DNA from: Marsupella aquatica
Taxonomy: Eukaryota > Plantae > Marchantiophyta
Length of the DNA: 64,000 bases
NCBI GenBank assembly: GCA_973895155.1
Contig: OZ316893.1
Location: 15,220,645-15,284,644, forward strand
Reading direction: 5' to 3'
A program made the translations under genes and the position numbers. The notes under the pieces are model-generated. The model saw nothing but the letters and a program-made list of their open reading frames with translations. It did not search any database and was not told the DNA's origin. Shown one piece after another: positions 6,801-39,464 of this stretch; the first letter of the stretch is position 1; each line of letters starts with the position of its first letter.

Positions 6801-8604
6801 AAAGCAATCAGGTATCAGTATGTGATCACGTCCATGACTGGTGCATATGTTAGGTCGTAGTCCCTTCCTGGTATTTGGGTAAATCCTTTGGCCACCAATT
6901 GGGCCTTGTACCTTGCAACCTCTCAATCTGCGTTTCTTTTTCTGACGAAGGTCCATTTGTAGCCAGTCAGGTGTATATCTGGGGTTGCTTGTGTTATTCT
7001 TCCGAATACTTGTCTGGAGATGAGTGAGTCAAGTTCCAAATTGATGGCCTTCTCCCACTTGGGCCAGTCAGGTTGTCTCTGTGCTTCTGTTGTCGTCTTC
7101 GGGTCTGGTAATTCTTTTTCCAGTACCTGTGAAATCTGGAATGCGAACTGGTCGTCTATCTGGGTATTTTCTCGATCCCAAACTTGGCCCGTTTGTTGGT
7201 AATTTATAGCAATTTCGTCATTCTCCATATTTGTGGTTGGTTGAGTTGGTATTGTTGTTGATGACTGTCTTTGAGTTGTTGTAGGTATGGTTCTTCTTTG
7301 GCGTGGTTGACGATCCGTGGCCCCTATCAGGCGTCCCCGTTTGGCCCGTGGTGGGGCCTCAATTGCGGGTGTGCCCTCTTGTTCAATTCTTGCTGGTGTA
7401 TTCGCTGCAGGTACATGTGATTATATCACCTTTGCTACATCTACGAAGGAGTCTGGCAGTTGTTCAATCATTTTGGTAAGATGGATTATCCTCTGAACTT
7501 CTGTGTCAGTTTGGGCTGTTCTTGGATCGTTCCAAAATGTAGATTGTATTTGCCATTCAAGCTCAGTATTTATTTTCTTATCTGTATTCGAGCCTGTTAT
7601 TAGAGTAGGGAGTATATGCTCGTAAAAATGGCAATCCGTGAACCTTGCTTTGAATATGTCTGCTGTTGTTGATTCCAGGTATCGGATGATGGAGGTCGAG
7701 TCAAAGCCTATGTAAATCCCTTTCTGCCTCTGGGGCCCCATCTTTGTGCGCTTAGGGCCCAGGATGGGGACTAATACTTGGCATCTGAATGTCCTTAAAT
7801 GGGATATATTCGGAGTTGTTCCGAATGCTAGGTGGTGGGGTGTCCTATCGTTGAATGCAGATGGTCTGTACTGGAGGAGGGCAGCCGCATGGAGTACCGC
7901 GTGGCCCCATGCTGATGTTGGGAGTTTCGTCTGCATCAATAGAGGTCTGGCTATGATCTGTAACCTCTTGATGAGGGATTCGGCTATTCCGTTCTGGAAG
8001 TGGACATGGGCTATTGGGTACTGTATATTTATTCCTGTTGTTGTGCAGAAGTCTTCAAATGTTTGAGATGAAAACTCGCCAGCATTGTCAACCCTGAGGT
8101 TTCTTATCGGGTTGTCAGGGAATTGTGCTTTCAGTTTTAGGATATGTGCCAATATCCTTGAAAACACTAAGTTTCTGGTTGACAGGAGAGATACTTGTGA
8201 CCACTTCGAGGAAACATCAATGATCACTAGGAAGAATCGGAAGGGGCTGCTTGGTGGATGTATGGGATCGCATATGTCTGCATGGAGTCTTTCCAAGAAG
8301 TTCGGGATGTTTTTGTCTATTTTGTTTGGTGATGGTCTTGTGATCATTTTTCCCTGTGAGCAGGTGAGGCATGGAGTCTGTATGGATCTTGGATGTACTA
8401 TGTTTGGTATTCCCTGTGTGTCCTTTATGATTTTGTGAAACATGCTGGTGCCTGGGTGTCCCAGTCTCTGGTGCCATATGTCTGTGATTGAGGGTGGCTG
8501 TATGGCAGTGTGGTAACTCTATGTTTTTGTGGCATAATATCCCGTAGGGTAGGCATAGAAGGTCTCTTTGACTTTGTTTCCATTGGGGGTTTTGGCAATA
8601 ATAT
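3859..8604 (-). pseudogene. Copia pol: integrase, reverse transcriptase and RNase H, with stops/frameshifts, split by the 4241-5726 insertion
   Basis: WHQRLGHP; CLTC; LHADICDPIHPPSSPFRFFLVIID; LRVDNAGEF; QNGIAES; QMDIVTAYLYG; MYGLKQSGRTW; IYVDDL; GYADAD; SWKSTKQ...TSSNHSEIIA; FEDN; TKHI; ADLLTK. Confidence 0.96.
4241..5726. mobile_element. 1486-bp GC-rich insertion, probable solo LTR with non-canonical AGT...ACT ends
   Basis: Flanked by ATGTA at 4236-4240 and 5727-5731. Removing it restores the RNase H frame KQSLTTTSSNHSEII. Termini AGTCGCGGAACTCG and revcomp AGTGGTGGACCTCG match at 11/14. Confidence 0.8.
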
Positions 8605-9459
8605 CACTAGAAGAATCCGAGGTGAACTGAGACCGCAATATGTGACTCATTTTGGCTCATGTGACTTCATTGTGACTCAACGTGACTTGACCCACATTGT
8701 GACCCTTGGAGTTGCAAAAGTTGAGACCAACAAATGGAAGTCACTATTGATACTGGGCCTTGTGACTTGCTTGATACCCATTTGTGACTGATCTGTGACT
8801 TTATTGTGAAGTCTAGCCTTGTTTCTACGTGACTGCAATATGACTTTGACGAGTCACATGGTAAGTCACATACATGACTTACTCGCATTCAACAACGACT
8901 AGCGTGTGACCATTTAGTGTCACAGGAGAGACCAATGGAGACCCTGGCCCGGGTCACACAACATAACCATTTGGGACTCTATATACTCATGTTTATAACT
9001 AATAAGGTTCACATGCAAGTTGTAACCATGACTAATGGACACAGAGGGACAGTTCATAAGGAGAGAGAGCACTCCACATTACAATACATAGAAACCTGAT
9101 GTTCTAACTTTAGAAATATAACACATTGAATACAAGAAATGAACATAGCATGAATGACATTCACATGAAATAAAGCATCATATAAGGAGGTCCTACACAA
9201 AACATTAATAAGAATTAAACAAAATCATAATCTTGCTCAAAAATGTAGATCATTTGAATTCCAATGGAATAGTTTACAATGTGATCAATGTAATTCAGAC
9301 AAAACAGGAACTCATAATTGATGACTGCAGGATGAGATAACTGAAAGCACATGCATGATACTATGAATCTCCAAGAGGACATGATTCTTGTACTCCTTCT
9401 TGACATCTAAAATCTACATAACATGACTCACACTACGAACAAATAATGGCATGACATTG

Positions 9460-10847
9460 TTATGGATCCTCTATGAACTTGCTTGGCCATAATACCAAAG
9501 AACCTACAGCATCTCCAAGTGTCTTTTGAGGAGGATCATCATTTGTGTTTGGAATGGGAAGGACAGCTTTAGGTTTCACTAGTAATGTGACTAACACTAC
9601 TGAATAACCTCGGGGAATCCTCAGATTCCCATGGAACGTTGTGGAACCAACCTGAACTCTGCCAAATCCTACTCGTGTTCCACTCTCATCAACAGCTAAC
9701 AAGCCACTTTGTCCCTCAGCATTAGGTGCTTTCCCTACTTCCACCTTAGATCTTTCTTCCAGCACCATTCTTAGAGGTTTGTATGAAACCTTTGACGTGG
9801 CTCTGCTCCCACCAGCAGACTTGCTTCGTGTGTGCATGCTTCCTCTCTTCACAGTAGTGAAGCTAGGCTCAGTAGGTTCCTCTGTTAGGACTGTCACAGC
9901 AGTAGGTTCACCACCTGGGAGTGTCATACCAACTAACTCTTTGGTTGGATTTATCTCAACAAGAGGCACACCTGTCATTGAGAATGATACATTCTGCAAA
10001 TCATTTATCTTTGCAATGGAGTCAAGATAGCATGAATCTGGCTCAATGGTATCATTGTCATGCTTGTTGATATCCTCATTTGCCCCAACATTGATATCAT
10101 CCACTCCCTTGCCAATGTCATCCTCATCCAAACATGGTTGACTACCCTCTGTCAAACAAGTTGCTTGTACAGACTGCAACTTTGTTGCCTCTAAATTACA
10201 GCGAGTATTTGCCAGGTTCTCATACTTCTTCTCTGCAACACCTGTCTTATTCTCTATGGACACAACAACCACAATATATGTTACTGAAAATAACACATTC
10301 AACAAACTATGTCAATTCAAACTATACATTTACTAATCATATCCCACACAGTTGTAAAGGCCTTACCTTCAAGCCTACATGTCGTTGGCATGCCAGAAGA
10401 GTGCATCGACTTTGCCACCTCAAGTGGTGATGGTGGAACTCCTGCAGAATTGGAATCAATTTTATCTCTCACCAACACAACAGCTTCCATTAATGTCTTG
10501 AAGTTCACATGGAACAAGTCAGTCAATGAATTCAAACGTTCATTGATCTCTGGAAGACATGTTTTGACAGCCTTCAAACGACCACTTATCTCTGTAAGTG
10601 AAGATCCACCTCCCTACATGACACAGGGGTATAGGTTCAATCACTCCATATGAAATGTTGGGCAATATATGCACAATCAATGTTATATACAGTGTACACC
10701 TGAAATTCAACGTAGGTCATTCAATTACCAATCAGAACTCATATAACTTACATGCTTGGAGGATTCAGATGCACCCTCTTGAGCCCGGGTGTTCACAGTT
10801 TCAGCCCTCAACTCTTCTTTTGAAGGGCTTTGCCCCAATTGGGCTTT
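9460..10847 (-). pseudogene. 3' exons of the CACTA TnpA/ORF2-like gene
   Basis: Exon KAQLGQSPSKEELRAE... lies between TGCAG and GTAAG. The terminal exon ends VGFGRVQ...FHGNLRIPRGYSVVLV...LPIPN...TLGDAVGSLVLWP, a C-terminal motif typical of plant CACTA ORF2 proteins. Confidence 0.7.
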
Positions 10848-10871
10848 CTGCACATGCTTGTGAAAAACAAG

Positions 10872-11871
10872 CGCGTGGCGCACGGCAGCGAAGAGCAAAT
10901 GGCTATGGAGGGGAGCGATGGAGGGGGAGGGGCAGGAGCAGGGACAGGAATAGAATTTGGAGGAACAGCTGGAGGGCAAGGAGATGGTGGAGATGAAGGG
11001 TCAGGAGCTGGACGAGGTGGGGCTGGAGGAGCTATTGGGGATGGAGCAGGGCCATCAGAAGACTTTGGGGAGATCATGGCTGCAATTTTCCATAAGCAGG
11101 TAGGGCTCTCCATAGAGCATGCGCAAAAGGTGGCTGCATTGACACAAGGATTGCTAGACTCTTCTAGGAGCACTGTTCTTGCTGAAGCTCAGAAAACATT
11201 TGAGGAGAGGCAGCATACTAGGGAGAAAGAGAAGAAGAGGAAGAGAAGGGAGGAGAAGGAGACTGTACCTGTGGAGGCCCTCTCACCACGACAGAGAGAG
11301 AAGGCCTTACGTAGACAGGCACGGGCTGCAGATAGGAAAAGAGCCGAGGAGGAGAAGCTGCGAGCAGAGGAGAGAAGCAAGAGGCCAAAAATTCAGAGTT
11401 CGTGAGCAGGTGAAGGAATGTTTTTGCAACGGCTCATTCATTGATGACAGGTTCTTAAACAAGAAAATCAGTCTATCCCTTGCAGACAGAAGGAATCACA
11501 TCAGGGAGAAGCTGAGGAAGTACCTTGGTGAGTGCAAGGACAGTGAGGAGGTGATCAAGCAAAGAGGGTGCCCAAATGATATTCCTGTGGAGGTATGGCC
11601 AGCTTGGATTGAGACCGAGCTGCAGGTTCAAGCCTGGCAGGCAAGGAGATACTGGCAAGCTGAGCTAGAAGTCCTTGCAGTGAGGGTCCAGGCAGGGGAG
11701 ACTATTGACACCCGCCATGCTGATCAAAACCTGCAACATTGGGATGCAAAGTCAATTCAGCTTGGGGACCCTCCCTCACATATGCAAAAGGCATTGATTC
11801 GAGTTGAGAACAGGCCAGTAGTCACTCACAGAATGGGGCAGGGCGGGTCGCTGCGTCTCAAGGCAGAATTT
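10872..11871 (+). pseudogene. TnpA/Ptta-like (Transposase_24-type) exon on the opposite strand, frameshifted
   Basis: Gly-rich and charged region, then RNHIREKLRK...CPNDIPVEVWPAW...THRMGQGGSLRLKAEF followed by a GTAAG donor at 11872. Confidence 0.65.
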
Positions 11872-11946
11872 GTAAGTAGACTCCACCTCCTCTCTCCAAG
11901 CTCTTCCCTCCATTCACCTGATCACCTGAGGCCCTTCTTTGCCTGA

Positions 11947-14533
11947 AGAGCGCCGGCCCAAAGTCCCCTCTTATTGTCAAGCCGTGCGAGCCCTGCAAGC
12001 GCGCTATGCATGCGATCGATAACTCCATCTTTTTTTGTCGGGGCCCTATTTCCGATTATGGTCCGATAGTAATAGAATCGGAAAGACAGTCGGAAATATT
12101 GCTATGGCTTTTTTGGACGTCGTGTCCGATTCCAATCTGACATTGATGCTATCGGACAAACAATCAAAAAGTAATCGGACAGTTTGAATTTTCAAATTTT
12201 TTGACGGTTACCCTTGCGGATTATCGTGGTTGGTTCCATTGACCATTTTAAAACATGTTGGGGGTGATCTAGTGTGGATCTAATTGGGGTGTGACCCAGT
12301 GGCACTAATTGGGACTAATTTGGTTGTCGGTGCATTTTTTGAGGGGGGCAGGAGCGCGAGCATGGGCGACCAATATTGCCAGAAGAGAGGGAGTTGGCTA
12401 AGAAACAAGGACCACGGGCTCTTTGGATTCACTTGAAGGAGGAGCTGGGTTTGGTAAGGAGATTATTTTAAATGCAATGTCTTAATGGGGTGTTGAAATT
12501 TATTTCTAAAAAGCGTATACTAATTTAGGTGGTTGGTTGGATATATGCAGGGCTCAGACAAGGAGGGTGAGGAGGGTGAGGACTCGGCGGACAAGGGCTT
12601 AGGGCATAGCAATGGGGGATACGGCGAATCTGATTCAGAGTCGTCGGACCCAGAGGAGGGGATTGTGGCCATACCCCCTCCTCGCCGGTCCGATACAGTT
12701 AGGGGTAGTGCTAGGGCTCTTCAGTCGACCCGTCGTGGCCCCATAGCGGATGTTCGTGCGACACATACTAGGACCAGTAGGGGTGGTGCTAGTGGGACCC
12801 CTCACCAGCCTAAAGCCATAGGGGTTGGATCTAGTGGCAGACGTGACTCACGGGCTGCTGGCACAGGTGGTGAGGGTCCCCGGCGCCGGTCACGGGCTAG
12901 TGGCAGAGCTGATATTCGAGGCACTCGGCATGTGTCGCGAGATGAGCGACGTGCTGTTGGTGAGTTTGGCCGATTAGAGCCTCATGGGGAAGGGTGTTCT
13001 AGAGGCTCACAACACTCTGGTGCAGATGGGGGTGGCTCGGGAGGTTCTCGTCACTCAGGCTCGACAGGGGGTGGTGTTAGGGCCCCTGGCCAGTTAGGAG
13101 GGAGTGGTGGTGTTGCTGGTGTCTCTCCCCACTCAAGCCACATTGGGGGCGATGTTACTGCTCCTGGTCAGTCAGGAGGGAGTAGAGCTAGTGTCGGTGG
13201 TGTGTCTCACCACTCAGGCTGCATTGGGGGCGGTGTTAGTGCTCAGGGTCAGTCAGGAGGGAGTAGAGGGAGTAGAGGTAGTGTCAGTGTTGTCTCTCAC
13301 CACTCAGGCCGCACTGGGGGTCGTCGACCTGCCCCTGGCCAGTTAGGAGGGAGTACAGCCGGTGGAGTTGGTGTCTCTCACCCTTAAGCCCAGACTGGGG
13401 GTGCTCATATTGCCCTTGGCCATTCAGGAGGGAGCGGGGGTGGTACATCACGGCAGTCCGTTGGCAACGGGGCTAGTGGGGGTGGTGCAGCTTCCTTTCA
13501 TACTTGCCATGCAAGTGGGGGGAGCGGACCTTCCCATGACTCCCTAGCGTCACATGGTGGTGGTGGTGGTGGCGTGGGTCTAGTGCCTCCTATGACCTCT
13601 ACATAGGGGCCAGATGTTGTGGACCAAGTCACCATGGACAAGCCCCCATTCACCCAAGCTCCCGCCCAGACTAGTATTGTACCCCCACCACCTCGGACTC
13701 ATTCCAAAAAAAGGAAGGGACGACATGCTCCATTTTGACTTAGACTAGCTTAGATAGATAGAGATATACTGCGTAGCCTTAGACTTAGACGAGATTAGGA
13801 GTTGGATGTGCTTACTTTTGTGATCCCAGTACTTGGATCACTCTTGTACATTTTGGGGTATGTTTCCCTTTTGGAGTTTGAGTACCCTTTGTGGCCATAT
13901 ATCCTTCTTGTGTTAATTACTTCTATTGGCATTGTCTTTCAAATAACCTCTTCAACATCTTCAACAAATCCCTCTATGTTGTATTGAATAAATTCCCCCA
14001 AGAACCACCCTCAACCCCAACAAAAAAAATCCCCACAAGAAACCAAATGTTGCAATGAACCTAGGTCTTTCCCGAGTAATCTTCCGATACTTTTCCTATC
14101 GCACCCCTCCATTGCTTCCGAATCCCTCCGTTTCGTATGTTCCGATACCAATTATACGTCAAATTCCCATACCAAACCTATCGGAACATCCGTTTATTTC
14201 ACCACCGCAATGTCCGATGGGACTTTTAACGCAATATCCCTTGAAAATTCATATGGACAATTGTCGGACGACAGATCTTCACCTGGTGCAAGGAGAGGCT
14301 TCTTTCGACTCTTGTGACATCAGACACCTAATGTATCCGATTGGAGGAGATATGCAATGTCCGATAGTATTGGTATCGGGTGGTCCGAAACAGGTCCGAT
14401 GGTCCATATCCGATTCTGGGAGTATCGGACGGAGCGATGCAATTAGGATTGGAAACCTCAAAAATGGCGTCGCATTTTCCCGAAGGCGTCCGATGGTGTA
14501 AATATCGGTAAATGGCCCTAAAATGTACTAGTG
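11947..14533 (+). mobile_element. Nested, left-truncated second CACTA element
   Basis: Right terminus ...GTACTAGTG at 14533 (revcomp CACTAGTAC) cuts the host transposase. Many TCCGA/TCGGA subterminal repeats at 14080-14510 and 12050-12180. No matching left TIR found, so the left boundary is uncertain and could extend to about 10872. Confidence 0.8.
12352..13738 (+). pseudogene. ORF2-like 3' exons of the nested CACTA with Gly/Ser-rich tandem repeats
   Basis: Exon EREHGRPILPEERELAKK...LGL|GTAAG, then ATGCAG|GSDKEGEEG... with repeated HSGxxGGxVxAPGQxGGS units. In-frame TAA at 13385-13387. Confidence 0.55.
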
Positions 14534-17396
14534 ATAGATGTGGTCAGGTTCTTTGTGGTTGCAGCCCCTTCCAGTACTTCACCTATCACCCCTTTCTCCT
14601 CATCTGAATTCCACACCCTGGTCTTCACATGCTCATATTGTGCTATGTATTCGGTCAGAAATCCCAGAGTCTCATCCTTGATGTAACCTTTAGCCATGCT
14701 TGCTTCAGGTTTGTAATATGTTCTCACGTGACCTTTGAGTAGCTTCATGTACCGTTCCAAAGGGTACAACCAACGAGCACTCACAGGCCCAAATTGGTGT
14801 AGCTCTTCCACAACATGGACAAGTAGGTGGGTCATGACATCAAAAAATGCGGGAGGAAAATAAATCTCCAGGTCACACATCACCTGAGCGACATCTTCTA
14901 TCAGTTGCGGGAAGTGTGTTTCATCCCAAACCTTCACACAAATACGACGAAACACATCACTGAGTCGCATGATCACATTACAAACAGGCTTCTGCAACAA
15001 GCCCCTCAGACATAAAGGCAACACCTGTTGCATCAACATATGGTAGTCATGGCTTTTCATACTACCAAGCTTTCTAGTCATGATATGCTTCTTGAAAGCA
15101 CTGCCATAGTTTGAAGGAACCTTCAAAGAACTCAACCTCTGCACAAATAGTTGCCACTATGTGTCTGTCAAAACATAGGGCACTTGGTACTTCAAGAGCA
15201 CATCAGCTCTGTGGGCATGTGGCCTCAACCAAAGATGGGGTTTCATTCCCCTCTGTTCAAGATCCAATCTCACTGAACTAGTGTCTTTCTCTCCACACAA
15301 GAATCTGAGTAGACTCTCACAAATATTCTTCTCAATGTGAATAACATCAATGTTATGTTTGCTTGGCTCAAACTCCTGCATTGTTGCAATGCAAAAGCGT
15401 CAGCAAATGCCTCAAGTTTAGTCTCTCTTCAAAATGAATGCACATGCTCTGAACCAAAACATGTATCCCAATTTGCATCAACTCCAAGAGGCTTACCCTC
15501 CAATACTTGAGCTCCAAGTCCAATATGCTCAGTCTTTTTACACCATATCGCTTTATTGGATCACTCACTCCATCTTCTTTGCCCCCTCGTTTGATATAGT
15601 CATCCCTCAGTGCTCCCCACTGCCTGATCTCCTCTTTGGTCACTCGTGCCGGGGGTCCACGTTGCTCAATCTCATTGCCAAAGTCTGCAATCAGTGCTTG
15701 TCTTTCTCTGTAAGGGTGATATGTCTTCAAAAAACGACGATGGCCCATGTATATCACTTTCTGCAGGGCTCTGGAGTACTCACTGGTGACATTGCGCCCA
15801 TAGATAGTACAAGCACAATATCCTTTTGTTGTTTGGTCTGATATCATCCCATGGGCTAGGTAGTCAGCTACAGTTAGAATGACGATGGCTCTAAGGATGA
15901 ATGGGTTTAACCTCCCAAGCCTCTGTAGGACATCATATGTGAGGACTCCTTCCTCCCAAAGCTTTCTCAATTCCTCCACTAGGGGAGCCAAAAACACATC
16001 TATGTTGGCAGATATAGCACTGTCTGGCCCTGGTATCATTAGGACCATCTGAACAAAAAATCGCTTTGTAGTCATCCAAGGAGGAAGGTTATAATTCAAA
16101 ATAGTTACAGGCCAACACGGAAATTTGTTGTTCTTGTCTCCAAATGGGTTTACCCCATCCAATGACAGCCCAAGTCTGACATTCCTCGGCTCAGCAGAAA
16201 ATTCGGGATACATCTCATCTATGAGTTTCCACTACCTTGAATCTGCAGCATGTCGTTGTAGCCCATTATCACTTTTCTTGTCAGTTGCCCAAGTCATCAT
16301 CTCCAAGATGGCACGGCTTCTGAACATCCGCTGAAGTCTGGGAATGAGTGGAAAATGACGAAGTACCTTGGCGGGAACCATAGACTTTCCTGAGTTCCGA
16401 TACCTGTGCTTCCCACACTTAGGGCATGTCAACGATTCTGCATACTCCTTTCTGAAAAGAACATGCCCATCGGGACAGGCATGGATGGAATCATAGTTCA
16501 ATCCAAGATTAGATATGCATCTTTTTGCCTCGTACATGTTCTTGGGCAAAATATTACCATATGGTAGCATAGTTGTTCGCAAGAATGCCAACAACTCAGA
16601 AACCAAAACGTTGGGGACATTGCACGGTTGCCGCAAATGTTCAGGAACATGATGACAAATCCCAGTTTAGAACATTTGCTACCGGGGTACAAAGACTTCC
16701 TGCCTTCCTGTATTTGCAGGGGAGAGCCAAACATCCCATCATGCCCAGGGGTTTCCTGCCCTATCTCAAACTCATCAAGAGGCTCTTCGACAGGGGGCAC
16801 ACTTGCATCTGCAGCCATATCCTCTTCGTTGTCCAACCCATCGTGAAATGCATCCTAGTCTTGGAAGATGTCTCTCACCATCTCTTCCACATGAATTCCT
16901 TTGTCACGTGGTGTTGCCTGAGCACCATCCCATTGGAGAGCTGACAACCCACAGAGACCAGCTACAACATTTTCAAATGCACCAGGCAGAACCTCACTTG
17001 CCCGTCTTGCAGCATTGGCAGCATCAAATTCTAACCTCCACTCCTTGTTGGAAGAATCTTCCTCTACAGGATCATTCCAAACTCGATGTTGTGGATCTCT
17101 TCCATGAACCGCGATATGCCGCCAAACCTCATTCAGACCCCTGGTACGGGATCCTTGGCAGATTGCACAAGGACATCTCATCCTACTGGCTCCTGAAAGT
17201 CTGGTTCGTAACCTTTCACACTGCCAAAGCTTATTATCATGGCGTGATATCCTTGTGGGATGATGCAAAGGCAGTGCCTATGCCCTAGGCTGGGTCTGGG
17301 GAGGGTGGTGACCAGGGTGCATTGTAACAGGCTGGGAGCTCTGCAGTCATAGACAGCAGTGAACAAGGATGCCTAATGGTGGTATTTGTGTTCCAT
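14534..17396 (-). pseudogene. CACTA TnpD-like transposase (Tnp2/Transposase_21 + DUF4218-like), frameshifted and 3'-truncated
   Basis: RCPCAIC...RHIAVHG; IHACPDGHVLF; CPKCGKHRY; LRHFPLIPRLQRMF; PRNVRLGLSLDGVNPF; NYNLPPW; IDVIHIEKNI; MKSHDYH; FPPAFFDVMTHLLVH; GPVSARWLYPLERYM. Confidence 0.97.
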
Positions 17397-17621
17397 ATAT
17401 CCCTGACTGTATCTGCCAAAAGAGTTAACATAACGTGTACTAAATTCTACCCTAAACCACCTCAAAAGAAAAAAAACAGGTTCGCGAGTAGTGTACCTAT
17501 TGTCAAGTGAATGACACAGAATTCCTAAATGTTGGAGGGTGTCACCACCTCCTCCGCTGTCCTCAAATATACGGCCTCTGCATGTACACCCATGACCATA
17601 TCAGAGTCCAATCATGTTTAG

Positions 17622-18190
17622 TCACAGGCACAGGTGTGAGAGCGGTATCAGATATCTCACCTTATTACCAGGTGAGATATGGTACCAACCCTGTTCTTGA
17701 TGCCACTCAGACCTCAGGTACTCAGGCATGTACATTAAATCATCAAGGTCTAAACCCTGCTCATGCCATGGGGGTCTTGCATCCGTGCCTACAAGCAGTG
17801 GATGCACTGCCCTCCACTGGGGGCAAGTTGCTACCAAGTCCCTCCACCGTGTATTAATTTGTCTATATTTGCAGATATCTTGTGCACAGGACACCACAAG
17901 AACCCTCGGCCAGACATGTGAAAGAACTATATCATCTGCCAAATCAGGCAACAAGGAACCACCTACAACATCGGGCTTGTCTAACTCATCTACTGAAAAG
18001 TAGATGTCCACTTCCGACTATGCATCCTCGTTCACGATAGATTCAGCGTCTCTTGCATCCTCAGGCGGTGCCAAGAAATGTTTTAGCACCAACCCATGCA
18101 AGAGAGTCCTAACTGTGGCTAGCCATATGGCAACTCGGAGGAGGAGCTGTAATAGCGCCTGTTGATCTAGGAAAGGTAACATACCCATCA
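17622..18190 (-). pseudogene. F-box-like cargo ORF with one in-frame TAG
   Basis: LLPDLADDIVLSHVWPRV...ICKYRQINTRWRDLV fits the F-box pattern LP..I...I...L......L..V...WR.LV. The ORFs 18018-18305 and 17622-18011 are in frame across one stop. Confidence 0.6.
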
Positions 18191-18408
18191 AAGTCTGCCG
18201 CCGAGATTTGAGCCCACCCAGTACGTTTACAGTGACACCCCCAGGCAGCAGGAAACAACAATCCGCCAACAGTAAAATAAGCCCAACTGCCACCAACCAT
18301 AACAAGGTACATTAGTTCAAAGATCACATTTATTTCAATGATCTGATTTATACAAAAAAACTTGTGTCCAAATTGATGCTACTACTCCTCACTCTGATGG
18401 GGTATTTA

Positions 18409-18655
18409 CAAACGACAGGAAACAGCAAACAGTAACAGAAAACAGAAACTGGTAACAGGAAAATGAGTGGTAATTTTTTTGAATTTTTTTTAATTCAAAA
18501 GGGTAGCGCCCAAAGCTAGCCAAAAAATGTTGTAACTTAGATTTTTTTGGAAAATGAAACTTTTTAGAAAACATTTTGACATGGTTATTTTTGCTGGTAA
18601 CAGGAAAAATTTTCCTGGTACCAGTAAACCTGTTTCCTGTTTACTGTCACGCGTG
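18409..18655. mobile_element. MITE related to the 32612-32925 element
   Basis: Inverted ends GACAGGAAACAGCAAACAG / CTGTTTCCTGTTTACTGTCACGCGTG around an AT-rich core. Shares GCTAGCCAAAAAAT with the 32.6-kb copy. Confidence 0.7.
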
Positions 18656-19534
18656 CCATACCCACTCTGATTCAGAATCGCTAATGACCCATTCCTCACT
18701 TGTTGTCTCATAGTCCTCTCTGTAAGGATCCTGACCCTTCCGTGGCCAGGCCTCAAAAAGATCATAGTCCATTGGGTTTTGATGCTTCCCAGTTGCTACT
18801 GATTCCACAAACCAAGCATATGAAACCATAAACACATTATGGGACATGACATAAAAGCGAATGTCTCCCTTCCCAAACTTGCCGCAGGCTTTGGGATATG
18901 ACTTAGTAATGACATGAGTGGTGTCCTCTATTATATTCTCCTCCACTGTCCCACCTAGGTCAAGCACTGTGGACTTGTACACTTTGCACTTAACCTCTCC
19001 AATTCCCGCCTCCACAAATACCATGCTCAGCCCTTTCAGAATGGGGGTTGGTTGCTTCGTCTCCTCAGCCAACATACTCTTCAGCCTTGTAGAGCTCTGT
19101 CCTTTGTTGAGTACAGGTCCATATTGGAGATCAGCAAGCCTTGCCTTTGCTTCCCAGACTTCTTGTTCAGCCCAAGCTGATGCAGTAGCTTCTTCATCCT
19201 CCCACAACTCATATTGCTCAGTATCCTGTACAATCTTATGTGCTATGGAATCTGTGATCCAAGAGGCCTCAACTACTTTTAGGCCTTGCTTAGTAATTAC
19301 AGAATTCATGTAGGACCATGACCACTTCTTTATCACTGATAGCCATGTCCCTGCAACAACATGTGTAGTCTCTGGAGTGATGTCCTGAACTACAGTGCCA
19401 TGGAGCTCAGAGAATCGTTTCTGTACAGTTGGCCAATGCACTTTGGTCAACCCATGCTGGCCATGGACCAAAATGGCTCTGACCCCTGTAACCACTGTTG
19501 GGTGGTCACACTTTCTATGTTTCCCAGGCTCCAT
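18647..19534 (-). CDS. Tandem BRCT-domain protein (DNA polymerase lambda-type BRCT), CACTA cargo
   Basis: Open 295-codon frame with two repeats: ...GTVVQDITPETTHVV...VVEASWITDSI...YEL and LKGLSMVFVEAG...LGGTVEENIIEDTTHVI...KFGK...VSYAWFVESVATGKHQNPMDYDL. Splice acceptor 11 nt before the ATG. Confidence 0.85.
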   Translation of the reverse strand: MEPGKHRKCDHPTVVTGVRAILVHGQHGLTKVHWPTVQKRFSELHGTVVQDITPETTHVVAGTWLSVIKKWSWSYMNSVITKQGLKVVEASWITDSIAHKIVQDTEQYELWEDEEATASAWAEQEVWEAKARLADLQYGPVLNKGQSSTRLKSMLAEETKQPTPILKGLSMVFVEAGIGEVKCKVYKSTVLDLGGTVEENIIEDTTHVITKSYPKACGKFGKGDIRFYVMSHNVFMVSYAWFVESVATGKHQNPMDYDLFEAWPRKGQDPYREDYETTSEEWVISDSESEWVWHA

Positions 19535-20126
19535 GTACACACACCCTACGTGATGACAATGAATTTTGGAAGAATGGGTTCACCTGACAATACAAGGACA
19601 ACAAAATTCCTGCTTTTTGAGTTGATCTGGCCCACTGGTGCTCAGGTCTGATTTTGATAGGTACAAGGGATATGTGAACAATACGTACTAGGCACCTGCA
19701 CGGATGCAGGACATTGTTTGAATATATACTACAAAATCCATATCGAAGGTGAAATGAAGTGTAACCAACTTGTCATGGCACATACATATTTTGTTGTAAA
19801 GGAGGATACATTCAATGACAAACTTATAGGGCAATTTGATTAATTGCATGCCTGATAATTTATACGCTTACAACTTAGAAGTCCTATTTTAATTTAGCAG
19901 TCTGATGAAAGTGTTTATGAAAATGACCACTCAGCCTAAATACTTCCAAGAAGGCTTGTAAGGATAAGTTTTTATAGGCATGTACCCAGCCACTGACGCC
20001 AGAGCACAAGATAAGTGCTACCTATATAAACTCGCCTACCCAACTCCTTTTCAAAATTGGAATCTCTGCAATCTCAAAAAATAGTACATCCACATCAGGT
20101 GCACTGTGCATGTACAATGTTCAGCT

Positions 20127-20771
20127 TCACAGCCAAGATATGTGATCTCTCATAGGAGTGCGCGAGGTAGGATCAATGGCATGGCGATGACAATAAAATA
20201 TCCATCGATCAACACCATGTGCAGAGTGATCATAGATTTCTCTATCACAAGCATAACCCTTTGCTTGACGATCTTTCAGGCAATGATAGTGCCACATAGT
20301 GGGACACCTAGCATAGTGGACTATGTCAGTCCAATAGTCATCATCATGCTCACCACATGCCTTGCACCTATGAAGTGGGCAAGCTGTGGCATGAGCAGGC
20401 AAACACTCAAAACAGAAAAATCTCACACAAAAACGGTATGGACATTTCCTAACATTTGCTGCAGCATCAACAGAGCCCTCATAGGACCCCAACTTCCCAC
20501 ATTGTGCACACTTAGCCTGCTTCTCCAAACTATCAGTGCACATCCAGTCTCCCTGGTGTGTTGACGGGAGGCCCACCCCTGGACAGTTGTTTTCTGCAGC
20601 AAGGTCAGACTCCGGGTTGAGGTGGAAATGCCTGATGCAAGGGCCCTCACAAATGACCAGGCCCCTACCATCATCACAAATGGCACAACAATGAGCTGCC
20701 TTTTGGAAAATCTGACTTGTGTTTCTCATCTCTGTCACACGCTTTTTGGCTTGAATTTTAGGTCGTGCCAT
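20127..20771 (-). CDS. EDM2-like composite PHD-finger protein, CACTA cargo
   Basis: CAICDDG...CEGPCIRHFH...C...CAQCGKLGS...CPLHRCKAC...RCPTMWHYHCL...IFYCHRHAID...TPMRDHI follows the EDM2 PHD region motif by motif. TGCAG acceptor 2 nt before the ATG. Confidence 0.85.
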   Translation of the reverse strand: MARPKIQAKKRVTEMRNTSQIFQKAAHCCAICDDGRGLVICEGPCIRHFHLNPESDLAAENNCPGVGLPSTHQGDWMCTDSLEKQAKCAQCGKLGSYEGSVDAAANVRKCPYRFCVRFFCFECLPAHATACPLHRCKACGEHDDDYWTDIVHYARCPTMWHYHCLKDRQAKGYACDREIYDHSAHGVDRWIFYCHRHAIDPTSRTPMRDHISWL

Positions 20772-20782
20772 GCCTGCACATG

Positions 20783-20926
20783 AGATAGACTCTACAATTT
20801 AGCAGACTGCACAAAAAGTAATATATATTTAGCATTTAAGGTACAAAAGCATTTAGATAGACTCTACAATTTAGCAGACTGCACAGAAAGTAAAATATAT
20901 TTAGCATTTAAGGTACAAAGGCTTTT
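20783..20926. repeat. Tandem duplication, 2 x 72 bp
   Basis: AGATAGACTCTACAATTTAGCAGACTGCACA... starts at 20783 and again at 20855. Confidence 0.9.
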
Positions 20927-21498
20927 GCTACTGCAATGAATTGGAATGGCCACACAAGGATGCAGAGCAGACATACTTTTGGTATGTTGAGCCAACACAC
21001 AAAACTGATCCCCTAATACAATTGCTCCACCAACACCTCAATTTTAATTGTGGCTATGATTCACCAAAGGAGATCAGCAACAACATTTCATGCATTTGAA
21101 TCACATACAATAGTCGTGACATGTAAAATAGACATTCTTCAAAGAGGATTGGTATGAAGCAGTGTCATAAGGGTTTAAATTTATACATCCTAAATAGGCT
21201 ATGATAGTGGCTGAGACAAATAAGTGAGGCATAAGTCACATTTTATAGGTTATCACATGGCCCATTAATTCATTGAACGTTGCAATGTTCACCAGGTTAA
21301 AGCAATCATGAAAGTAGTCTTTCAATAGAGACTTTTAAGCGAGTTTGCTAGCCTCTTAAATTAGGATATTTTGCTTAGTGCAGGCATAATAGGATAAGTT
21401 ATGTACTGTTGACCTTAAACCCTGGACCCAAAATTGCTCATACATCAAAAATTTAAGTAAATATCCTCTGTGTTGAAATCAGAGTGTTAAGCTATAGG

Positions 21499-21993
21499 TC
21501 AATGGTATCTGGTCTGTGCATGCGGTGTGACAAGTGGTCCTCTAGAGCATGTGATCCAAACATGTGTAGACACCAAAGTCACCGGTGGTGGGGTCTGGGA
21601 GGGCAGGACAAGTAACATCACCAGGCACACTGCAGGATGGCGAGTGGTTCCAGATGATACATTGTGCTCTGTGCAAAAATCAGCATCCAAGAGAACGGTC
21701 ATCCAATTCTGAGCCAGAAGCCTACAAGCAGGACAGTCATATTGGCAACTATGCACACACCCTTGGCACCTAATTTGTGGCGGGTCATGTACAAGAGACT
21801 GTACAAATACCAAGGATGTCGGGAAGGGTACTGAAGCAGGTAGAGGCCGGCTGTAGTTGTTCCTGGAAACAACTGGGTACTCAAAGTACCATGTAGACTG
21901 GGCTGGAAGGATCCCAAGTCTGACATACTCAAGGCGCAACATCTCTGCCTTGCGTGCGAGCCGCACATGTTCAGCGTTGTGGGTCCTCACCAT
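21499..21993 (-). CDS. Unknown Cys-rich ORF, possible CACTA cargo
   Basis: 164-aa ORF on the same strand as the other cargo, containing CQGCVHSCQYDCPAC. Family not recognised. Confidence 0.35.
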   Translation of the reverse strand: MVRTHNAEHVRLARKAEMLRLEYVRLGILPAQSTWYFEYPVVSRNNYSRPLPASVPFPTSLVFVQSLVHDPPQIRCQGCVHSCQYDCPACRLLAQNWMTVLLDADFCTEHNVSSGTTRHPAVCLVMLLVLPSQTPPPVTLVSTHVWITCSRGPLVTPHAQTRYH

Positions 21994-22506
21994 AAGTGTT
22001 GCTTTTGTTGTGATGTCCTCTGTTCACGTCCTTTGATGAGCAAGGCAAGCAGGAGGTCGACTTGCCTCTCCAACAGCAACCAACCTAAACTAATCAGTTC
22101 CCATTCATTGTCTTGCTTCCAACTACAGGTCATAGTATACACATAGCATGAAACATGCATAGTACATATTTGATTCTGAGTTTATGAGTTTCCTAAGACA
22201 AAGAGCTTGGTGATAAACCCATGATCTCGATGGACATGTATATCAATCATATTAAGATCCTATTTTTTCATCCTGAAAGACCAAAAGTCTCACCTTGCAG
22301 GTTGCACTAGAGAGAAAATTCACTGGCTGTCATGTTGTGCAAGTGAACCTCCACTGATGCCCCCGGTGTAGCCCCTCAGATGCAGGTGACACTTACCAAC
22401 TCCCAAGTTGCCTGGTCTAAAAGAAAATGCTGATATCTTCAGAACTTTATAGAGCAAGTACATGATCACATGGCGTTGGCCCTACCAAACTGTACGTTCA
22501 GAAAGA

Positions 22507-22605
22507 GACTACAATATTCATAAAGAGTCAACTCTACACTTGGTTCATACACATACTTCTGGATATATTCATATTTGGCCTTATGGAACTCTTGCCAACT
22601 ACAAC
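22507..22605 (+). pseudogene. Captured ubiquitin fragments
   Basis: DYNIHKESTLHLV at 22507-22545 (ubiquitin has DYNIQKESTLHLV) and GTLANYN at 22585-22605. Confidence 0.75.
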
Positions 22606-23097
22606 TTACTCCCATTATGCACAAGCTCACATCAACAGAGAAAGATACAGAATGCATACTTACTATGGCTGTAAGCACCTTCACTACCTGTTGAACCCAG
22701 TCCTGAAGTCTTTTCAGCGTGTTTGTTGTGCTGTCTCCTTTGATACCCAACACCTTAGTCCTTGATGTAACAGAATGCGATTTGACAAGTTAGATGCTTT
22801 GGAACCTTCTATGGTCTTAGCTGAATTGATGTCATCGTAAGTGGTGAAAGACAAGGAAGACAAAAGCTGGTTGAAGAGCTGTGGACAACACACTAGCATG
22901 AAGTGCTTCAACCAATCCACTGCCAAACGGAACTCTTACACAGTCACATTCTTTCAGTAAACAGAAACTCAGTCAAACTTCATAATCAAAGTACAGACTC
23001 TGAAGGACCAAAGGAGGATGTTGTGAGTTTCTCTGTTGTTTAATGTGTTACACTTCTAGTTTTGAAGTTAGCAAATGCTGAATAATGTGTCTACCAG

Positions 23098-23439
23098 ATC
23101 TTCGAAAACAAGCCCACCACAATTAAGAACTTCGGTATCTGGGTGAGGTATCATAGTCGTACAGGTTATCACAACATGTACAAGGAATATCGTGATACCA
23201 CGTTGAACGGAGCTGTAGAGCAGGTGTATGATGAGATGGCTTCTTGTCATAGAGTTCGGTTCCCTTGCATCCAGATCATCAAGACTACGACAGTCCCTAT
23301 CTCTCTGTGCAAGCGAGAAAGTACCAAGTAGTTCCATGATTCAAAGATCAAGTTCCCCTTGACGTACCGCAAGATTCAACCTCCATCGCGAAAGCTGAAG
23401 ACGACTTACAAGGCCACTAGGCCCAACACATTTGTTTGA
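23098..23439 (+). pseudogene. RPL18A: Captured last exon of 60S ribosomal protein L18a (eL20)
   Basis: CAG|[44 protein letters not shown]...IQIIKT...[10 protein letters not shown]...[12 protein letters not shown]. Premature TAG at 23329-23331; upstream intron acceptor retained. Confidence 0.95.
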
Positions 23440-26400
23440 GTAGTGCGGGTGCAGCTTCCCAATTTTGAAACAATTTTGCTCATTTTATGTCCCGAGGGAC
23501 TCCAGGAGTTTATGTATTGAGTTTCTAGGTCAAGATGCTTAATATAAGTGAGTACGCATCAGTGGATACAGTGAGAGGGCTAAAATTTCATATGTCTGGA
23601 GTTGAAAGAACCCAACAAACACACTACCAAAATTAGAAAGAACCCAATAGACAGAGTACCGTTCTCAGGGGAGTTACAGGTCAACTTTCAAACATAAGTG
23701 TAACCATTTCAAGGCCAAACTTTATTAACTCCCCAAAACAGAGCACAAGGAAGCAAAGGACTTAAGCCAACCCGTCAAAGTTTCAGACCTGTCAATGCAG
23801 CAGCTCCCAAGTGTGCTTAGGTAAGCTCGGCTCAAAATCAGCCTCAATAGCTCCCACGCTGAGTACCACTGATTGTAGGCAATATGGAGCCTGAGACTAC
23901 CATCATTGTTCAAATTTGAGGTGAGGAAAGAGGGTACCAAAATTCTAGAGAACCCAATACCAAACATGCGGTGGCCTTAAATATCATTCCTATATTTATA
24001 TTCACAGCAAAGTGTTTAATTTTCATAAGCAAGTTAGGGTCGAGCTCGAAATACACTTACAACCAGCCGAATGTCAATAGCGCTCACTGCGGAAGGTTGA
24101 GATGTGTCGCTGATGGTAGCGCGTTTGCAATCCCCTCCACCTGACCAGTTGCAGCTCACAGTCATTTTCAGGAATTAATGTGTATCCTGTACCTCATTCA
24201 TTTCCTCATTATTTTCCCCAACTCAAATATTGGACTGCCATTTAGTTAAGCCTGTCTTTAATTTCTAACACCATGGAAGATTCGACTTACTGAGTAATGA
24301 CTTTAACCAGAGCGAACTAGAATGAACGAAACATCTCACGACATCATGGACAATTTAAAGTGACAAAATACAAGATACAGAATAGGATACAAAAGAGGAC
24401 ATGGCAAAAAGGACGAGTTGTAGGCTTGGAACGAGAAGAATGATAGAGAGACTCCAGAGTCTATCTTACCTTCACAAACTCTGAAAGATTTTACAAGCAT
24501 TACAATGTGCAAATGAATGAGCTCTCAAGACCAAATACATTTTCGCCTACACTGAAACAGAGTCCACAAACTCTGTACCCAACCGCTGTTGGAGGAGCTC
24601 CATCCCCACAATCGATTGAAAAAGCACATTCAACCTGAGCTGAGAGCGATTCCGGAAGGACGGACGGGCATTGAGTCACAGACAATCATGTGAGTTTGGG
24701 GTCCCAGGCGCATCTGTGATAGGAAAAAATAGCTCGGCCGCAGTTGTGATGGCAGGGCGGGTGCAGTAGGAGGCACTCATCAGGCAGCTAGGGAGGGAAG
24801 GGAGGGGAGGGAGAGAGGGAAGGGAGAAGAGGGAGAGATGGAAGGGAGCGGAAGGAAACTTCGAGCCCCCACAGGGGGAAGTCACTCTGTCTTACTACTC
24901 ACTTACAACAAATGAAGGTCACAGGTCCTTAAACCCTATCCCGAGTCACAATCATAAAATGCAGCTTGCATCACACAATTAAAAGAACACCAGGCAATTG
25001 AAGGAAGCAGCATTCGGCAATGGACCTAGGCAGCTCGCGAATTTCGCTCAGTAGCGATGTCACCTAGACCCTAAACACACAATGCATACATCACCTAGAC
25101 AACTATACTTGCAGCCACGAGGTGAGTCCGCGTCGATAGGGGATTGCAGCCTTACCTGTGCCGATGTAGCACCAAGCCGCCCTAACTGAAACTGCGTAGC
25201 AATCCACAGCAATCGCTCAATGCAAAAGCAGGGCCCGGTTGGCCTTGCAGCCCGATCATCCACCTTCAACCCTGCCACCAAGCAATGAGCTCTCCGCTGT
25301 TGCTCACCCTAAACCTTCAACACTCCCGCGAAGTTGTGTCTGCTTGCAAGAACAACTCCTTGCGAATCTTTCAACCCGGCCTAAACCCATAGCACAATCG
25401 CAAAACCTAGCAATGTCACCGCTGCAACGTTTTGTGCTTGCAATAAGCAGCCTCCTAAACCCACAGCTCCTTCCACCGTTCACAAAATGCCAATGACTCA
25501 ACCCTCCTTCCAACCCCGAGCTCCCAATAGTAGCAAGAATCCAAGCAGGGTCTCCTGCAAGCGCACAGCAGAGACAAGATCTCTCGGAGCTCAATAGGAT
25601 TCACTCGAAGGCCCAAGCCTGACAATGTTCGGCTCTTCCTTCCCGCTCACCAAATGCCAAAACATAGGGCGCGCGAACCAGTGTTGTTTCTCCCAAGGGT
25701 TTTGGTACAAGGGGTTCGGGCAAAACAATCTGTGCAGGGCAAAGGCATTACGATGTAACATGTGGAAACTTGCGGCATGGTCCATTAGGTGAAGGGGTTC
25801 ATGAAGCCAATTGAGGGCAACACGCATTACAAGGAAGAGTAGGGAAAAATGACCACTCAGCAAAGGCATTGCATGGTACCCTTAACAAAAACAGTCCCTA
25901 ATATTGGGCCGTTCAATATTCCTACATGAAGGGAGCTGCAACCATTTGAAAATGGCCAAGGGGTATATTTGGAGACAGAACGCTGCCAAATGATGTTAGT
26001 GGGTTCAGTGTGTGTCTTTCTGTTTGTATGATGGAGTAACCAGTGGCCAAAATCATGGCGCGCGACTTGCAATTGCACCAGCCTCAGGTATATATAGCCA
26101 CACCTATAATAATTGTCAATCATACAGATAAAGTATAAAAGGACTGTCTGGTTAGATTTGGGATGTGGGCTGAGATTATTATTTAATAAGAGCCAAAGTT
26201 ACATTGTTCTTATATATGTGCAACCATGGTGATAAAGATGGCAGAAAGCGCTATTATAATTGTGCTGATCGAGCCACTTATAAAACTTCAAAATAGTTGC
26301 CTACACTAAGTTACAATTGCAACACTCCAAATAGTTATAGATATGACTCTCCAAAAATTCACCAAAACTTAGTTGAGAAGGTGTAACAAAGATGACACCA

Positions 26401-26486
26401 ATAACCTTGGAGTCACTGATTTCCAAAGGTCTCAAGACAGTCATGCAAGGGAGGGTCTCAGATAGGGCCGGTTTCTTCTGGTGTAT

Positions 26487-32611: not shown

Positions 32612-32925
32612 CACCGTGACAGCAAATAGCAAACAGATTTACTATTACGAGCAAAAAAATTCCTGTTACGAGCAAACTAGACAATCTAAAAATGTGTCAT
32701 TAAAAGTCACAATTTTCAAAATAATTTAAAACATGACAATTTTTTGCTAGTGTAAGGCGATACTATTACTAGCTCCGGGCGCTAGCCAAAAAATATCGAC
32801 TCACAAATATTTTTATATTTTTTTTCCCCAAAAAATAATCCAAAAAAAAAATTCCAAAAAAAATCCAAAATTTTTACCACCCGTTTGCTATTACGAGTAA
32901 CTATTTGCTGTTTGCTGTCACGGTG
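32612..32925. mobile_element. MITE with CACCGTGACAGCAAA TIRs
   Basis: Perfect 15-bp TIR that extends imperfectly inward, around an AT-rich core. Flanks are GTTTT/GTTAT. Confidence 0.85.
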
Positions 32926-33766
32926 GTTATACCTGTTGGGGACCCAGTTTTTTGTTGGGCCTCCTTTGGTACTCATGTGGGTGTTTCCTTATTATTCCCT
33001 TTATTGGGTCTTTTTTCCTTTAGTATCTTGTCTCCCGGTTAGGCATTCGTGTCTATTTGGCTGTGTTGTAGTAAGGTAGGAGATGCTCCAAGATGAAGAG
33101 TTAGTAGATCGGTAGGATAATTATTTGCAGCTTTTTACTAAAGTACCCCCCAAACTAAACATTATTACAATCTTGCCCCCCAAACTAAACTATTTACTAT
33201 ACTGCCCCCCAAACCGTATACCGATGCTTCTAACCAGACTTCTCGACCACGGAAGCGATCCTATTGGCTATCACGTAACCGCAGTCGACCACCCTTGGTC
33301 ACACTAACCCGCGAGATCAGTCACGTACGCAGCCTGCACCCAGCAGCGCCGCGCCTAAGGCGTCCGATACCTGTCGGGGCCTGGCTCCCACCAAGGCGCA
33401 CTTGCGCCCAATACTTCCCATTCCTCCTCTCGAGCCCCAACGAGCTATCGGGCCCCGACTCCTACCAGTCAACTTACGCTAAGGGCACGACTTCTACCAA
33501 TCGTTTTCTTCAAGGAAACACGCACATTGAGGCATATGATCGATCTCAAGAGGAGGGCGAACGGGAAGGGCAGGTAAGGGAAGGGGAGCCGCCAAATTTT
33601 CTCTAGCACAGCACTGGGAGGGTCGAGGCGCAGAAACACAAGGAACGCCACATTTGAAATTTCTACTAGGAGCGCAAATCGAAGCAGCATTTCCACTTCG
33701 GGAAAGCCATTATTTTAAGGTGCTGCAAGGTGAGATCGACCTCGAAGGCCAAGTGTGGGGTGTGCA

Positions 33767-34327
33767 ATGGCTAGAGCAATAAGCACCATCCTGAGGGCAC
33801 TCGCTGTATGCCTTTGGGCCTTTCTAGGAGTGATGGGGTCTATTTTTTGTCTGCTCTCTCGTGCCATGGAGTTCGGGAGGGATAAATTAGATTTCTGGCT
33901 GCAATCAGCCGGGGAGCTTCCTGCAGCCCCTACACTAGACTTACCCACTCCCGTACCCACTGCTCCGCCAATCCACTTGAATACCATGCTCGATTCCAGG
34001 GAGGATGAAGGCAAGCCAAGTATGCAGCCTAGGAAAGAACAGGCTGTAACACGAGAGCCAATGATGGAGCCTGTGAGCGAGATCATGGAGCAAAGGCCGA
34101 GGCAAGTCCCTACTACTGAAACAATGCACAGTTGGCATCTTGGGCAGAAGCGACGTTATTATGCAGTTGTCTACGGCTACACGCCAGGCATCTACGATAC
34201 ATGGGAGGCTTGTTAGCACCAGGTCCATGGCTTTAGCGGATGTAAATTTAAGAGTTTCAAGACTTGGCAAGAAGCATTGGCGTATTTGCAGGATGGATTG
34301 ATGCATATTAGGCGATCCAATTTGTAG
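33767..34327 (+). pseudogene. MULE second ORF: N-terminal hydrophobic helix + RNase H1 N-terminal (Cauli_VI / hybrid-binding) domain; one in-frame TAG
   Basis: RRYYAVVYGYTPGIYDTWEAC*HQVHGFSGCKFKSFKTWQEALAYL matches the consensus YYAV..G..PGIY.TW..C..QV.GF.G..FKSF.T..EA..YL. Confidence 0.88.
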
Positions 34328-34718
34328 TGTTAGAATTAGATAGGCAGGCTGTGAATTGTGCCAGCATTGCACTTGTGGTGCACGTCTCTCATTGTAGCCC
34401 AAAGTGGCCCATTTTGGAATACTAAATGTTTCTCATTCAATGCACACACATCCTATTTCTCTGATTCGAAGTGTAAATTCAATTGTCTTGTCATCTGTTT
34501 GAAAAGTATTCTCAACAAGTGACTAAAAAAACTAATAACATTGACAACTAAATTACTCTGCACAAGCCTGTCTAATGATGGGAACCACTGGATGGTGCAC
34601 TGTCCATGGTTGCTAGCAATTGAGAAAAGCTTCCAATGCTCATGCTCTCCTGTGATCCCCAACCTGGTACAATATGACAAGGATCCTCTTTGGCAGCACA
34701 GTGAGCTTCCTCCATGTC

Positions 34719-38831: not shown

Positions 38832-39464
38832 ATGAGGGACGTGGATGCAGCGGGGGCGACTGTAGGGAAGACGGAGGTTACTGAGCAGGAGAACGAGAAA
38901 CTGCCGGGAGTCGAGATAGATCTCCTAAAAAGACATCACAATCAGGCGATCCTGGCGAACCAATGCGGGTCCACGTTGTTTCAGGAGATCAACGCACCTA
39001 TGGAAGTGGTGTGGGGAATAGTACGCCGGTTTGATCAGCCGCATACCTACAAGCAGTTCCTCCAGAGCTGTTCGCTGTTGAAAGGCGATGGCAAGCCGGG
39101 GAGCGTGAGGGAAGTGAGACTGGTGTCCGGACTCCCAGGGACGAGCAGTATCGAGCGGCTGGAGGTTCTTGACGATGAGAACCACATAAGCAGCTTTAGG
39201 ATCCTGGGAGGTGGGCACAGGTTGAGGAATTATTGGTCCGTGACGTCGCTGCACGAGCGGGTCATCAATGGCCGGCGAGGGACTTTAGTGATCGAGTCGT
39301 ATGTTGCGGACATACCCGAAGGAAACACGGCTCCCGATACTTGCGTGTTTGTGGACACGGTGATTAAGTGCAATCTGAAGTCTTTGCAAACCATAGCCGA
39401 GCAGGCTGCTTTGGATGCTGCGGAGGATAAGACGAAGCATCTCACCATCAATTCTTGCGACTAG
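38832..39464 (+). CDS. PYL: PYR/PYL/RCAR abscisic acid receptor (intronless, 210 aa)
   Basis: [17 protein letters not shown]; [22 protein letters not shown]; GGGHRLRNY; [12 protein letters not shown]; [13 protein letters not shown] in CCACCCATGA after a GA-rich leader. Confidence 0.96.

Follow-up and report, generated by a model that had tools for sequence, protein, structure and literature searches.

What is a protein with two BRCT domains and no polymerase doing inside a DNA transposon of Marsupella aquatica? Plant DNA transposons rely on the host to mend the breaks made by their excision and insertion, a step to which DNA polymerase lambda (Pol lambda) has been tied, and a BRCT-only transposon protein would be a direct candidate for an element biasing that repair, small and testable. 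The window, that is, the whole stretch of DNA analysed, comprises 64,000 nucleotides; the intronless frame in question, hereafter the twin-BRCT ORF, lies inside a CACTA element (Table 1).

Table 1. The CACTA element and the features within it (window positions; aa, residues of the twin-BRCT ORF; TIR, terminal inverted repeat).
Feature	Position	Strand	Remarks
CACTA insertion	8605-26483		17.9 kb; 22/30-bp TIR, TAT duplication, empty site
CACTA terminal repeat (3' end relative to transposase)	8605-8634	+	TAT at 8602-8604; GTGAC subterminal repeats inward
Nested low-depth insertion	10850-14533		Ends in TAGTG; ATCGGA-type subterminal repeats; left end not fixed
Tnp2 transposase region	14535-17181	-	Transposase_21 E 2e-55, DUF4218 E 2e-27, Transpos_assoc E 3e-4; stops and frameshifts in window copy
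F-box-like remnant	17625-18017	-	Pfam F-box E 0.09, below cut-off
MITE-like insertion, 264 bp	18399-18662		9-bp duplication CACTCTGAT at 18390-18398 and 18663-18671, on ORF stop codon
Twin-BRCT ORF	18647-19534	-	ATG to TGA, 295 aa (290 aa prior to small insertion at stop)
BRCT repeat 2 (about aa 161-260)	18755-19054	-	K, V, Y aligned to human Pol lambda R57, L60, F61
Linker (aa 111-160)	19055-19204	-	Acidic helix 114-138, conserved T117 and E123; then low-confidence stretch 137-160
BRCT repeat 1 (about aa 14-110)	19205-19495	-	Trp-rich helix-2 region; W64, W73, W92 conserved
NSD-like PHD ORF, 214 aa	20127-20771	-	Three PHD matches, E 8e-4 to 5e-3, below Pfam cut-offs
Cys-rich ORF	21499-21993	-	No Pfam family
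Captured ribosomal protein L18a fragment	23098-23440	+	After an AG, internal stop
Other terminal repeat	26454-26483	-	Begins CACCA (one change), 22/30 matches; TAT at 26484-26486

ATG-initiated frames of at least 295 residues occurred in none of 200 base shuffles of the 17.9-kb element, the longest shuffled frame having 204. Pfam matches the protein to BRCT (PF00533, E 2.4e-11) in two stretches, the better at residues 162-243, and to BRCT_2 (PF16589, E 1.3e-8), best at 43-109. An AlphaFold2 model built from 23 sequences (pLDDT 70.5, pTM 0.43) consists of two β/α BRCT units, with the helix and the low-confidence stretch of the linker between them; folding from only three sequences gave an uninformative model (pLDDT 34.9). 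The assignment to BRCT thus combines the profile match with a four-strand, three-helix fold that carries the TH and W motifs. The first-pass annotation of this DNA had described two diverged BRCT repeats, an acidic helical linker and no polymerase, and every part of that description is borne out: sequence identity between the repeats amounts to 21% over 101 columns, residues 111-135 of the linker hold 8 D/E against 2 K/R, the motifs quoted for the second repeat are present, and no Pfam match to a polymerase family is found in the ORF. The 8-kDa lyase and nucleotidyltransferase domains are absent from the ORF and from 51 other scanned frames of the element, which rules out a Pol X enzyme.

With two BRCTs per chain, the protein is similar to the tandem BRCT modules of BRCA1, MDC1, LIG4 and TOPBP1/Rad4. 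In contrast to them, it spaces its domains with a linker of about 50 residues, the model (pTM 0.43) shows no fixed packing of the two, the chain is not embedded in a larger protein, and a Ser/Lys phosphate pocket is missing at the aligned positions; the pocket positions of BRCA1 align with H27 and S74. LIG4 and BRCA1 tandems top the Foldseek list, yet with rmsd of 13-23 Å (about 14 Å for the BRCA1 tandems) and TM of about 0.27. Linker length, pTM, pocket residues and rmsd together rule out a phosphopeptide-binding tandem of the BRCA1 type. Because of the long linker and the lack of a fixed domain arrangement in the model, each BRCT is predicted to bind through its own surface, and not as half of a BRCA1-type phosphopeptide clamp.

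The surrounding element has the terminal inverted repeats, 3-bp target-site duplication and Tnp2-type transposase of the CACTA/EnSpm superfamily. Its left end reads CACTAGAAGAATCCG, and in one of four sequencing runs (X2) a contig joins 8601 to 26484 with 3 shared letters, as an empty site would. The claim that the twin-BRCT ORF is transposon cargo is upheld by this contig together with the 22/30 terminal repeats and the TAT on both sides. The CACTA element is itself inserted in a Copia element (121-nt repeats at 3092 and 28348), whose gene frames across the insertion site are uninformative, with two frames and one stop in each. Along the minus strand of the CACTA element the order is Cys-rich frame, NSD-like PHD frame, twin-BRCT frame, F-box-like remnant and Tnp2 transposase. 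The PHD ORF is possibly a second accessory gene with a chromatin-reading product; contig depth over it is high, and its residue 81 is Cys in other copies and Ser in the window. In runs X2 and X5 there are contigs that leave out about 17749-18239, so that some copies are without the F-box-like remnant. The L18a fragment resembles a last exon, is undepleted in CpG and has raised contig depth, and the nested insertion contains a Gly/Ser-rich frame (12545-13387) composed of repeat units 78-90 nt long.

The two ends of the element differ. The GTGAC subterminal cluster is confined to 8640-8960, with none at the right end, and the right arm (23675-26483) combines low contig depth with an imperfect CACCA end. 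The window element may be a hybrid using an alternative end, as in Pack-CACTA formation.

Depth of contigs from the sequencing runs aligned to the window serves here as a qualitative hint and not as a copy number. It reaches values of similar magnitude over the twin-BRCT ORF, Tnp2 and the 3' end, about 3e4-1e5 in run X1 and 7e4-1.5e5 in run X2, and it remains high, within one order of magnitude, over 8605-10850 and 14534-22450, the twin-BRCT frame included. It is about 1e3 over the nested insertion and the right arm, being 30- to 100-fold lower over that insertion and over 23.7-26.4 kb. Since depth is similarly high over the ORF and Tnp2, the ORF appears, judged from contig depth alone, to be part of the element's abundant body; no contig bridging the two was found among those aligned.

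At its 3' end the frame has been slightly lengthened. The terminal five residues of the 295-aa frame, WVWHA, derive from the 264-bp insertion; the other copy of the 9-bp duplication reads in frame into TGA, and therefore the frame before insertion stopped at codon 290. Truncation of the ORF by this insertion is accordingly ruled out, as five residues were gained. Depth drops at 18663, where loose contig ends reveal other insertion sites of the 264-bp element. This small element and another at 32612-32925 have related subterminal words (GACAG..AAACAG).

The first-pass annotation had named lack of conservation among element copies as grounds against its cargo reading, but no indel with a share of at least 20% is listed within the ORF in the four runs, and the frame is conserved in this sense among the aligned copies. 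For letter differences, of which there are 79, the tallies cover the 37 that lie in the ORF among the 40 seen. Ten of these are private to the window, nine of them non-synonymous; at seven of the nine private residue changes the other copies share the residue of the distant homologues P0001 or P0002, which the window residue matches in none of the nine. In Tnp2, likewise, most aligned contigs differ from the window at the stop at 16856 and at the indels at 15421 and 16623-16624. Because its private changes depart in this way from residues shared with homologues, and the Tnp2 stop and indels follow the same pattern, the window copy is, to judge from these sites, in decay, moving away from the state conserved in the family. 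Among the 27 polymorphic differences listed, 9 are synonymous; with two linked changes in codon 66 excluded, the count is 8 of 25 against about 25% expected (P 0.27), so that the synonymous share among recent copies is not above chance and selection among them is not demonstrated. The observed/expected ratio of CpG is 0.19 in the twin-BRCT ORF, 0.28 in the related locus L001 (see below) and 0.36 in Tnp2. Two host-like ORFs have ratios of 0.96 and 0.78 and the L18a fragment one of 0.79, and a third host-like ORF (59246-59794) is also CpG-poor, at 0.28.

An exhaustive search of 1.84 billion representatives yielded 19 matches at E<=1e-3. Matches and their cluster members include ten other full-length two-repeat proteins, all of them stand-alone frames of 264-321 aa; eight measured relatives show 21-57% identity and the P0031 type 31%, and those with names come only from Riccia and Mesotaenium, which makes a seed plant an improbable host. 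Stand-alone twin-BRCT proteins form a family that goes under generic names only in the databases searched. Besides core BRCT positions, the family conserves W64, W73, T117, E123, Y213, A216, C217 and R226. Frames kept open at 21-57% identity would imply selection on the protein. A match to an intact host gene had been counted in advance against the cargo reading; none was found, and none of the 19 matches is a near-identical host donor. Scans of metagenomes and viruses with profile A1 recovered no relative, and the ESM Atlas gave generic BRCT clusters only. Longer fused forms were likewise missing with profile A1, and profile A4 returned only generic REV1/Rtt107-like proteins, which is weak evidence.

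No relative has been placed in a transposon context: a scan for P0031 gave a single locus of 1.4 kb without one, L001, which is 98% identical to intact P0031, carries an internal stop and has only the ORF in common with the window. An intact and a stop-bearing version side by side are what would be expected of a multicopy mobile family, and we infer that twin-BRCT genes may reside in transposons beyond the window's own family.

How old is the duplication? When a profile is made from one repeat only, the other repeat, held out, scores 30-73 bits (with one outlier at 9.7) and eight fungal REV1/Rtt107-like BRCTs score 25 bits or less, which points to a single BRCT subclass for both repeats. In a tree whose outgroups are few and fungal, with long outgroup branches placed unreliably, all 13 first repeats fall into one 20-row group (90/83, internally open) that also holds five single-domain proteins and only 2 of 11 second repeats. 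Within each of the 11 twin proteins the two repeats are 17-26% identical. Because first and second repeats group apart, the duplication is old, older than the spread of the family, in agreement with what the first-pass annotation had supposed. In the relative P0030/P0011 both repeats are repeat-1-like, which suggests a second, independent duplication.

The same annotation had called the repeats Pol lambda-type, and for this label the evidence is divided. What speaks for it comes from single-domain relatives: P0017 and P0018, the two nearest proteins with one BRCT that lie outside the family, both have the BRCT of human Pol lambda as best PDB match (E 0.006 for P0017; E 0.2 for P0018, from Mesotaenium), and an R57-like motif occurs among the single-domain relatives, 5 of 7 having R or K at the R57 position. 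Used as Pol lambda proxies, the single-domain proteins were chosen by similarity to the query and are not annotated Pol lambda, and the Pol lambda reference was human. The best PDB match of P0020 is TOPBP1. Family profiles and the fold search do not single out Pol lambda. Profile A2 scores Pol lambda at 28.6 bits, BRCA1 at 28.2 and REV1 at 27.9; with profile A3 Pol lambda reaches 33.9 against 36.1 for REV1, and with profile A4, which includes the proxies P0017 and P0018, 39.2 against 38.1. In proxy-free profiles, then, human Pol lambda is level with or below REV1, BRCA1 and TOPBP1. It is absent from the 26 PDB matches of repeat 2 alone, the best single-sequence PDB match of the whole ORF is the BRCA1 BRCT (E 0.02), and no full-length Pol lambda was recovered among longer proteins in the search. 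In the fold search, the top structural match has Z 15.1 and rmsd 1.7 Å, and the Pol lambda BRCT comes at rank 14 (Z 11.5, rmsd 2.1 Å over 94 residues), with PARP4 and ECT2 among the higher ranks.

Compared directly, the N-terminal BRCT of human Pol lambda (2jw5/9g9l) and the window protein are alike in the BRCT fold, in the G-I-G..helix-1 start of repeat 2 and in a long helix-2 segment after the TH motif. They differ in that the window protein is duplicated and is without both the polymerase and the Ser/Pro-rich region, in that Ku-contact residues occur in a minority of the twin family, and in that proxy-free profiles do not place Pol lambda above other BRCT classes. Pol lambda ancestry of the repeats is plausible on these comparisons, and we lean slightly towards it.

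What, then, might the protein do? R57 and L60 mediate the docking of human Pol lambda on the Ku bridge, its Ku contact comprising R57, L60 and F61, and gap filling suffers from a Pol lambda that has lost its catalytic activity but can still bind Ku (passages of PMC12056208); the same logic would be available to a BRCT-only decoy. In Arabidopsis, the BRCT of Pol lambda binds LIG4/XRCC4, and plant Pol lambda has been linked to excision-site repair (passages of PMC4444747, citing Roy 2013 and Huefner 2011). At the equivalents of R57, L60 and F61, repeat 2 of the window has K (the K182 region), V and Y, that of its nearest relative K, M and Y, and repeat 1 of the window H, T and V; repeat 2 of P0001, like the window's, combines a basic with two hydrophobic residues. 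Across the family a basic residue (R/K) stands at the R57 equivalent in 3 of the 11 second repeats and in 2 of the 13 first ones. Because the Ku-contact positions are so poorly conserved, the idea of docking on Ku/XRCC4 is weakened.

The reading that we put forward, with about even confidence, is that of a long-kept accessory gene whose product would serve the element as an adaptor towards break-repair proteins of the host. One BRCT domain, probably of Pol lambda type, would have been captured and then duplicated in a CACTA element, and the resulting protein, a two-handed adaptor, would engage host proteins of double-strand-break repair at the cut sites of the element. Repeat 2 would be the more likely Ku/NHEJ-facing domain in the window's sub-lineage, and the Trp-rich repeat 1 would probably bind a different partner. 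A stricter version is doubtful: that a CACTA lineage in non-seed plants captured the Pol lambda BRCT itself, doubled and kept it, and that its product sits at the site on Ku where Pol X enzymes dock or links the transposase with the end-joining machinery. If true, the transposon would encode a tuner of the host's non-homologous end joining that is made from a repair adaptor of that same host.

It is somewhat unlikely that the ORF is a mere passenger, a captured member of a host twin-BRCT multigene family of non-seed plants carried as Pack-CACTA-type cargo with no role in transposition, or with one in epigenetic camouflage only. CACTA elements are well documented to capture gene fragments (passages of PMC8978399 and PMC13317346), and this very element carries a captured, broken piece of L18a. 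Such an origin would also agree with the lack of a significant synonymous excess among copies and with the ten relatives that have no known transposon context. Against it, the twin-BRCT frame is whole, intronless and without listed indels, and it is strongly depleted in CpG, which the L18a fragment is not. The 19 matches include no near-identical host donor, and one relative exists as intact and stop-bearing copies.

We consider it unlikely that the protein is an accessory factor outside repair: a scaffold that brings together the PHD, F-box-like and transposase products of the element or chromatin factors, as part of an anti-silencing module working in the manner of VANC. The VANC genes provide a precedent for plant DNA transposons retaining anti-silencing accessory genes (passages of PMC13317346). 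The PHD-like and F-box-like neighbours are on the same strand and at similar contig depth, although their matches fall under Pfam cut-offs. The residues that the twin family conserves are the BRCT core with W64, W73, T117, Y213, A216, C217 and R226, and not the Ku-contact patch; yet in the window and P0001 it is just this patch of repeat 2 that keeps one basic and two hydrophobic residues.

Largely refuted, and highly improbable, is a fragment of an ordinary tandem-BRCT host gene (of BRCA1/BARD1, LIG4 or TOPBP1 type) with the upstream PHD ORF as another exon: plant BRCA1/BARD1 do have a PHD ahead of two BRCTs, and BRCA1 or LIG4 head both the single-sequence PDB search and the Foldseek list, but the tandem superpositions have the rmsd and TM values given above, H27 and S74 align with the positions of the BRCA1 phosphate pocket, both repeats are of one subclass, and the full-length relatives are all stand-alone frames with none among longer proteins, this last being weak evidence.

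Returning to the adaptor reading, CACTA elements with extra domains or captured fragments are known, as in the Jozin elements of Chenopodium (passages of PMC8978399) and in Pack-CACTA (passages of PMC13317346). The window element shares with them the CACTA-type ends, the 3-bp duplication, the extra coding cargo, the captured host fragment and the Transpos_assoc, Transposase_21 and DUF4218 domains; it differs in that its cargo is a whole stand-alone twin-BRCT frame together with an NSD-like PHD frame. VANC of the VANDAL Mutator elements is a conceptual parallel only: there too a non-transposase gene is kept, sometimes with a captured domain, but superfamily and domain are different, and the function of VANC has been shown, whereas that of the twin-BRCT protein is a proposal (passages of PMC13317346). 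In term searches, 'BRCT' occurs 0 times in PMC8978399 and PMC12730594, and no report of a plant DNA transposon, CACTA or other, with BRCT genes was found in the literature covered, which excluded most subscription journals, Repbase reports and supplements. Cargo of CACTA elements in general is thus already known, and twin-BRCT cargo appears to be new.

Elsewhere in the window, a Mutator element (33117-37412) has long inverted repeats and MULE and MuDR domains, and a frame within it (33767-34216) matches the RNase H1 N-terminal domain (E 5e-5). There are also two intronless host-like frames on the plus strand. One, at 38832-39464 with a START/Bet v 1 fold (Pfam Polyketide_cyc2/Bet v 1), resembles PYL receptors and marks the host as a land plant; the other, at 57217-57759, has a Prp3_C domain.
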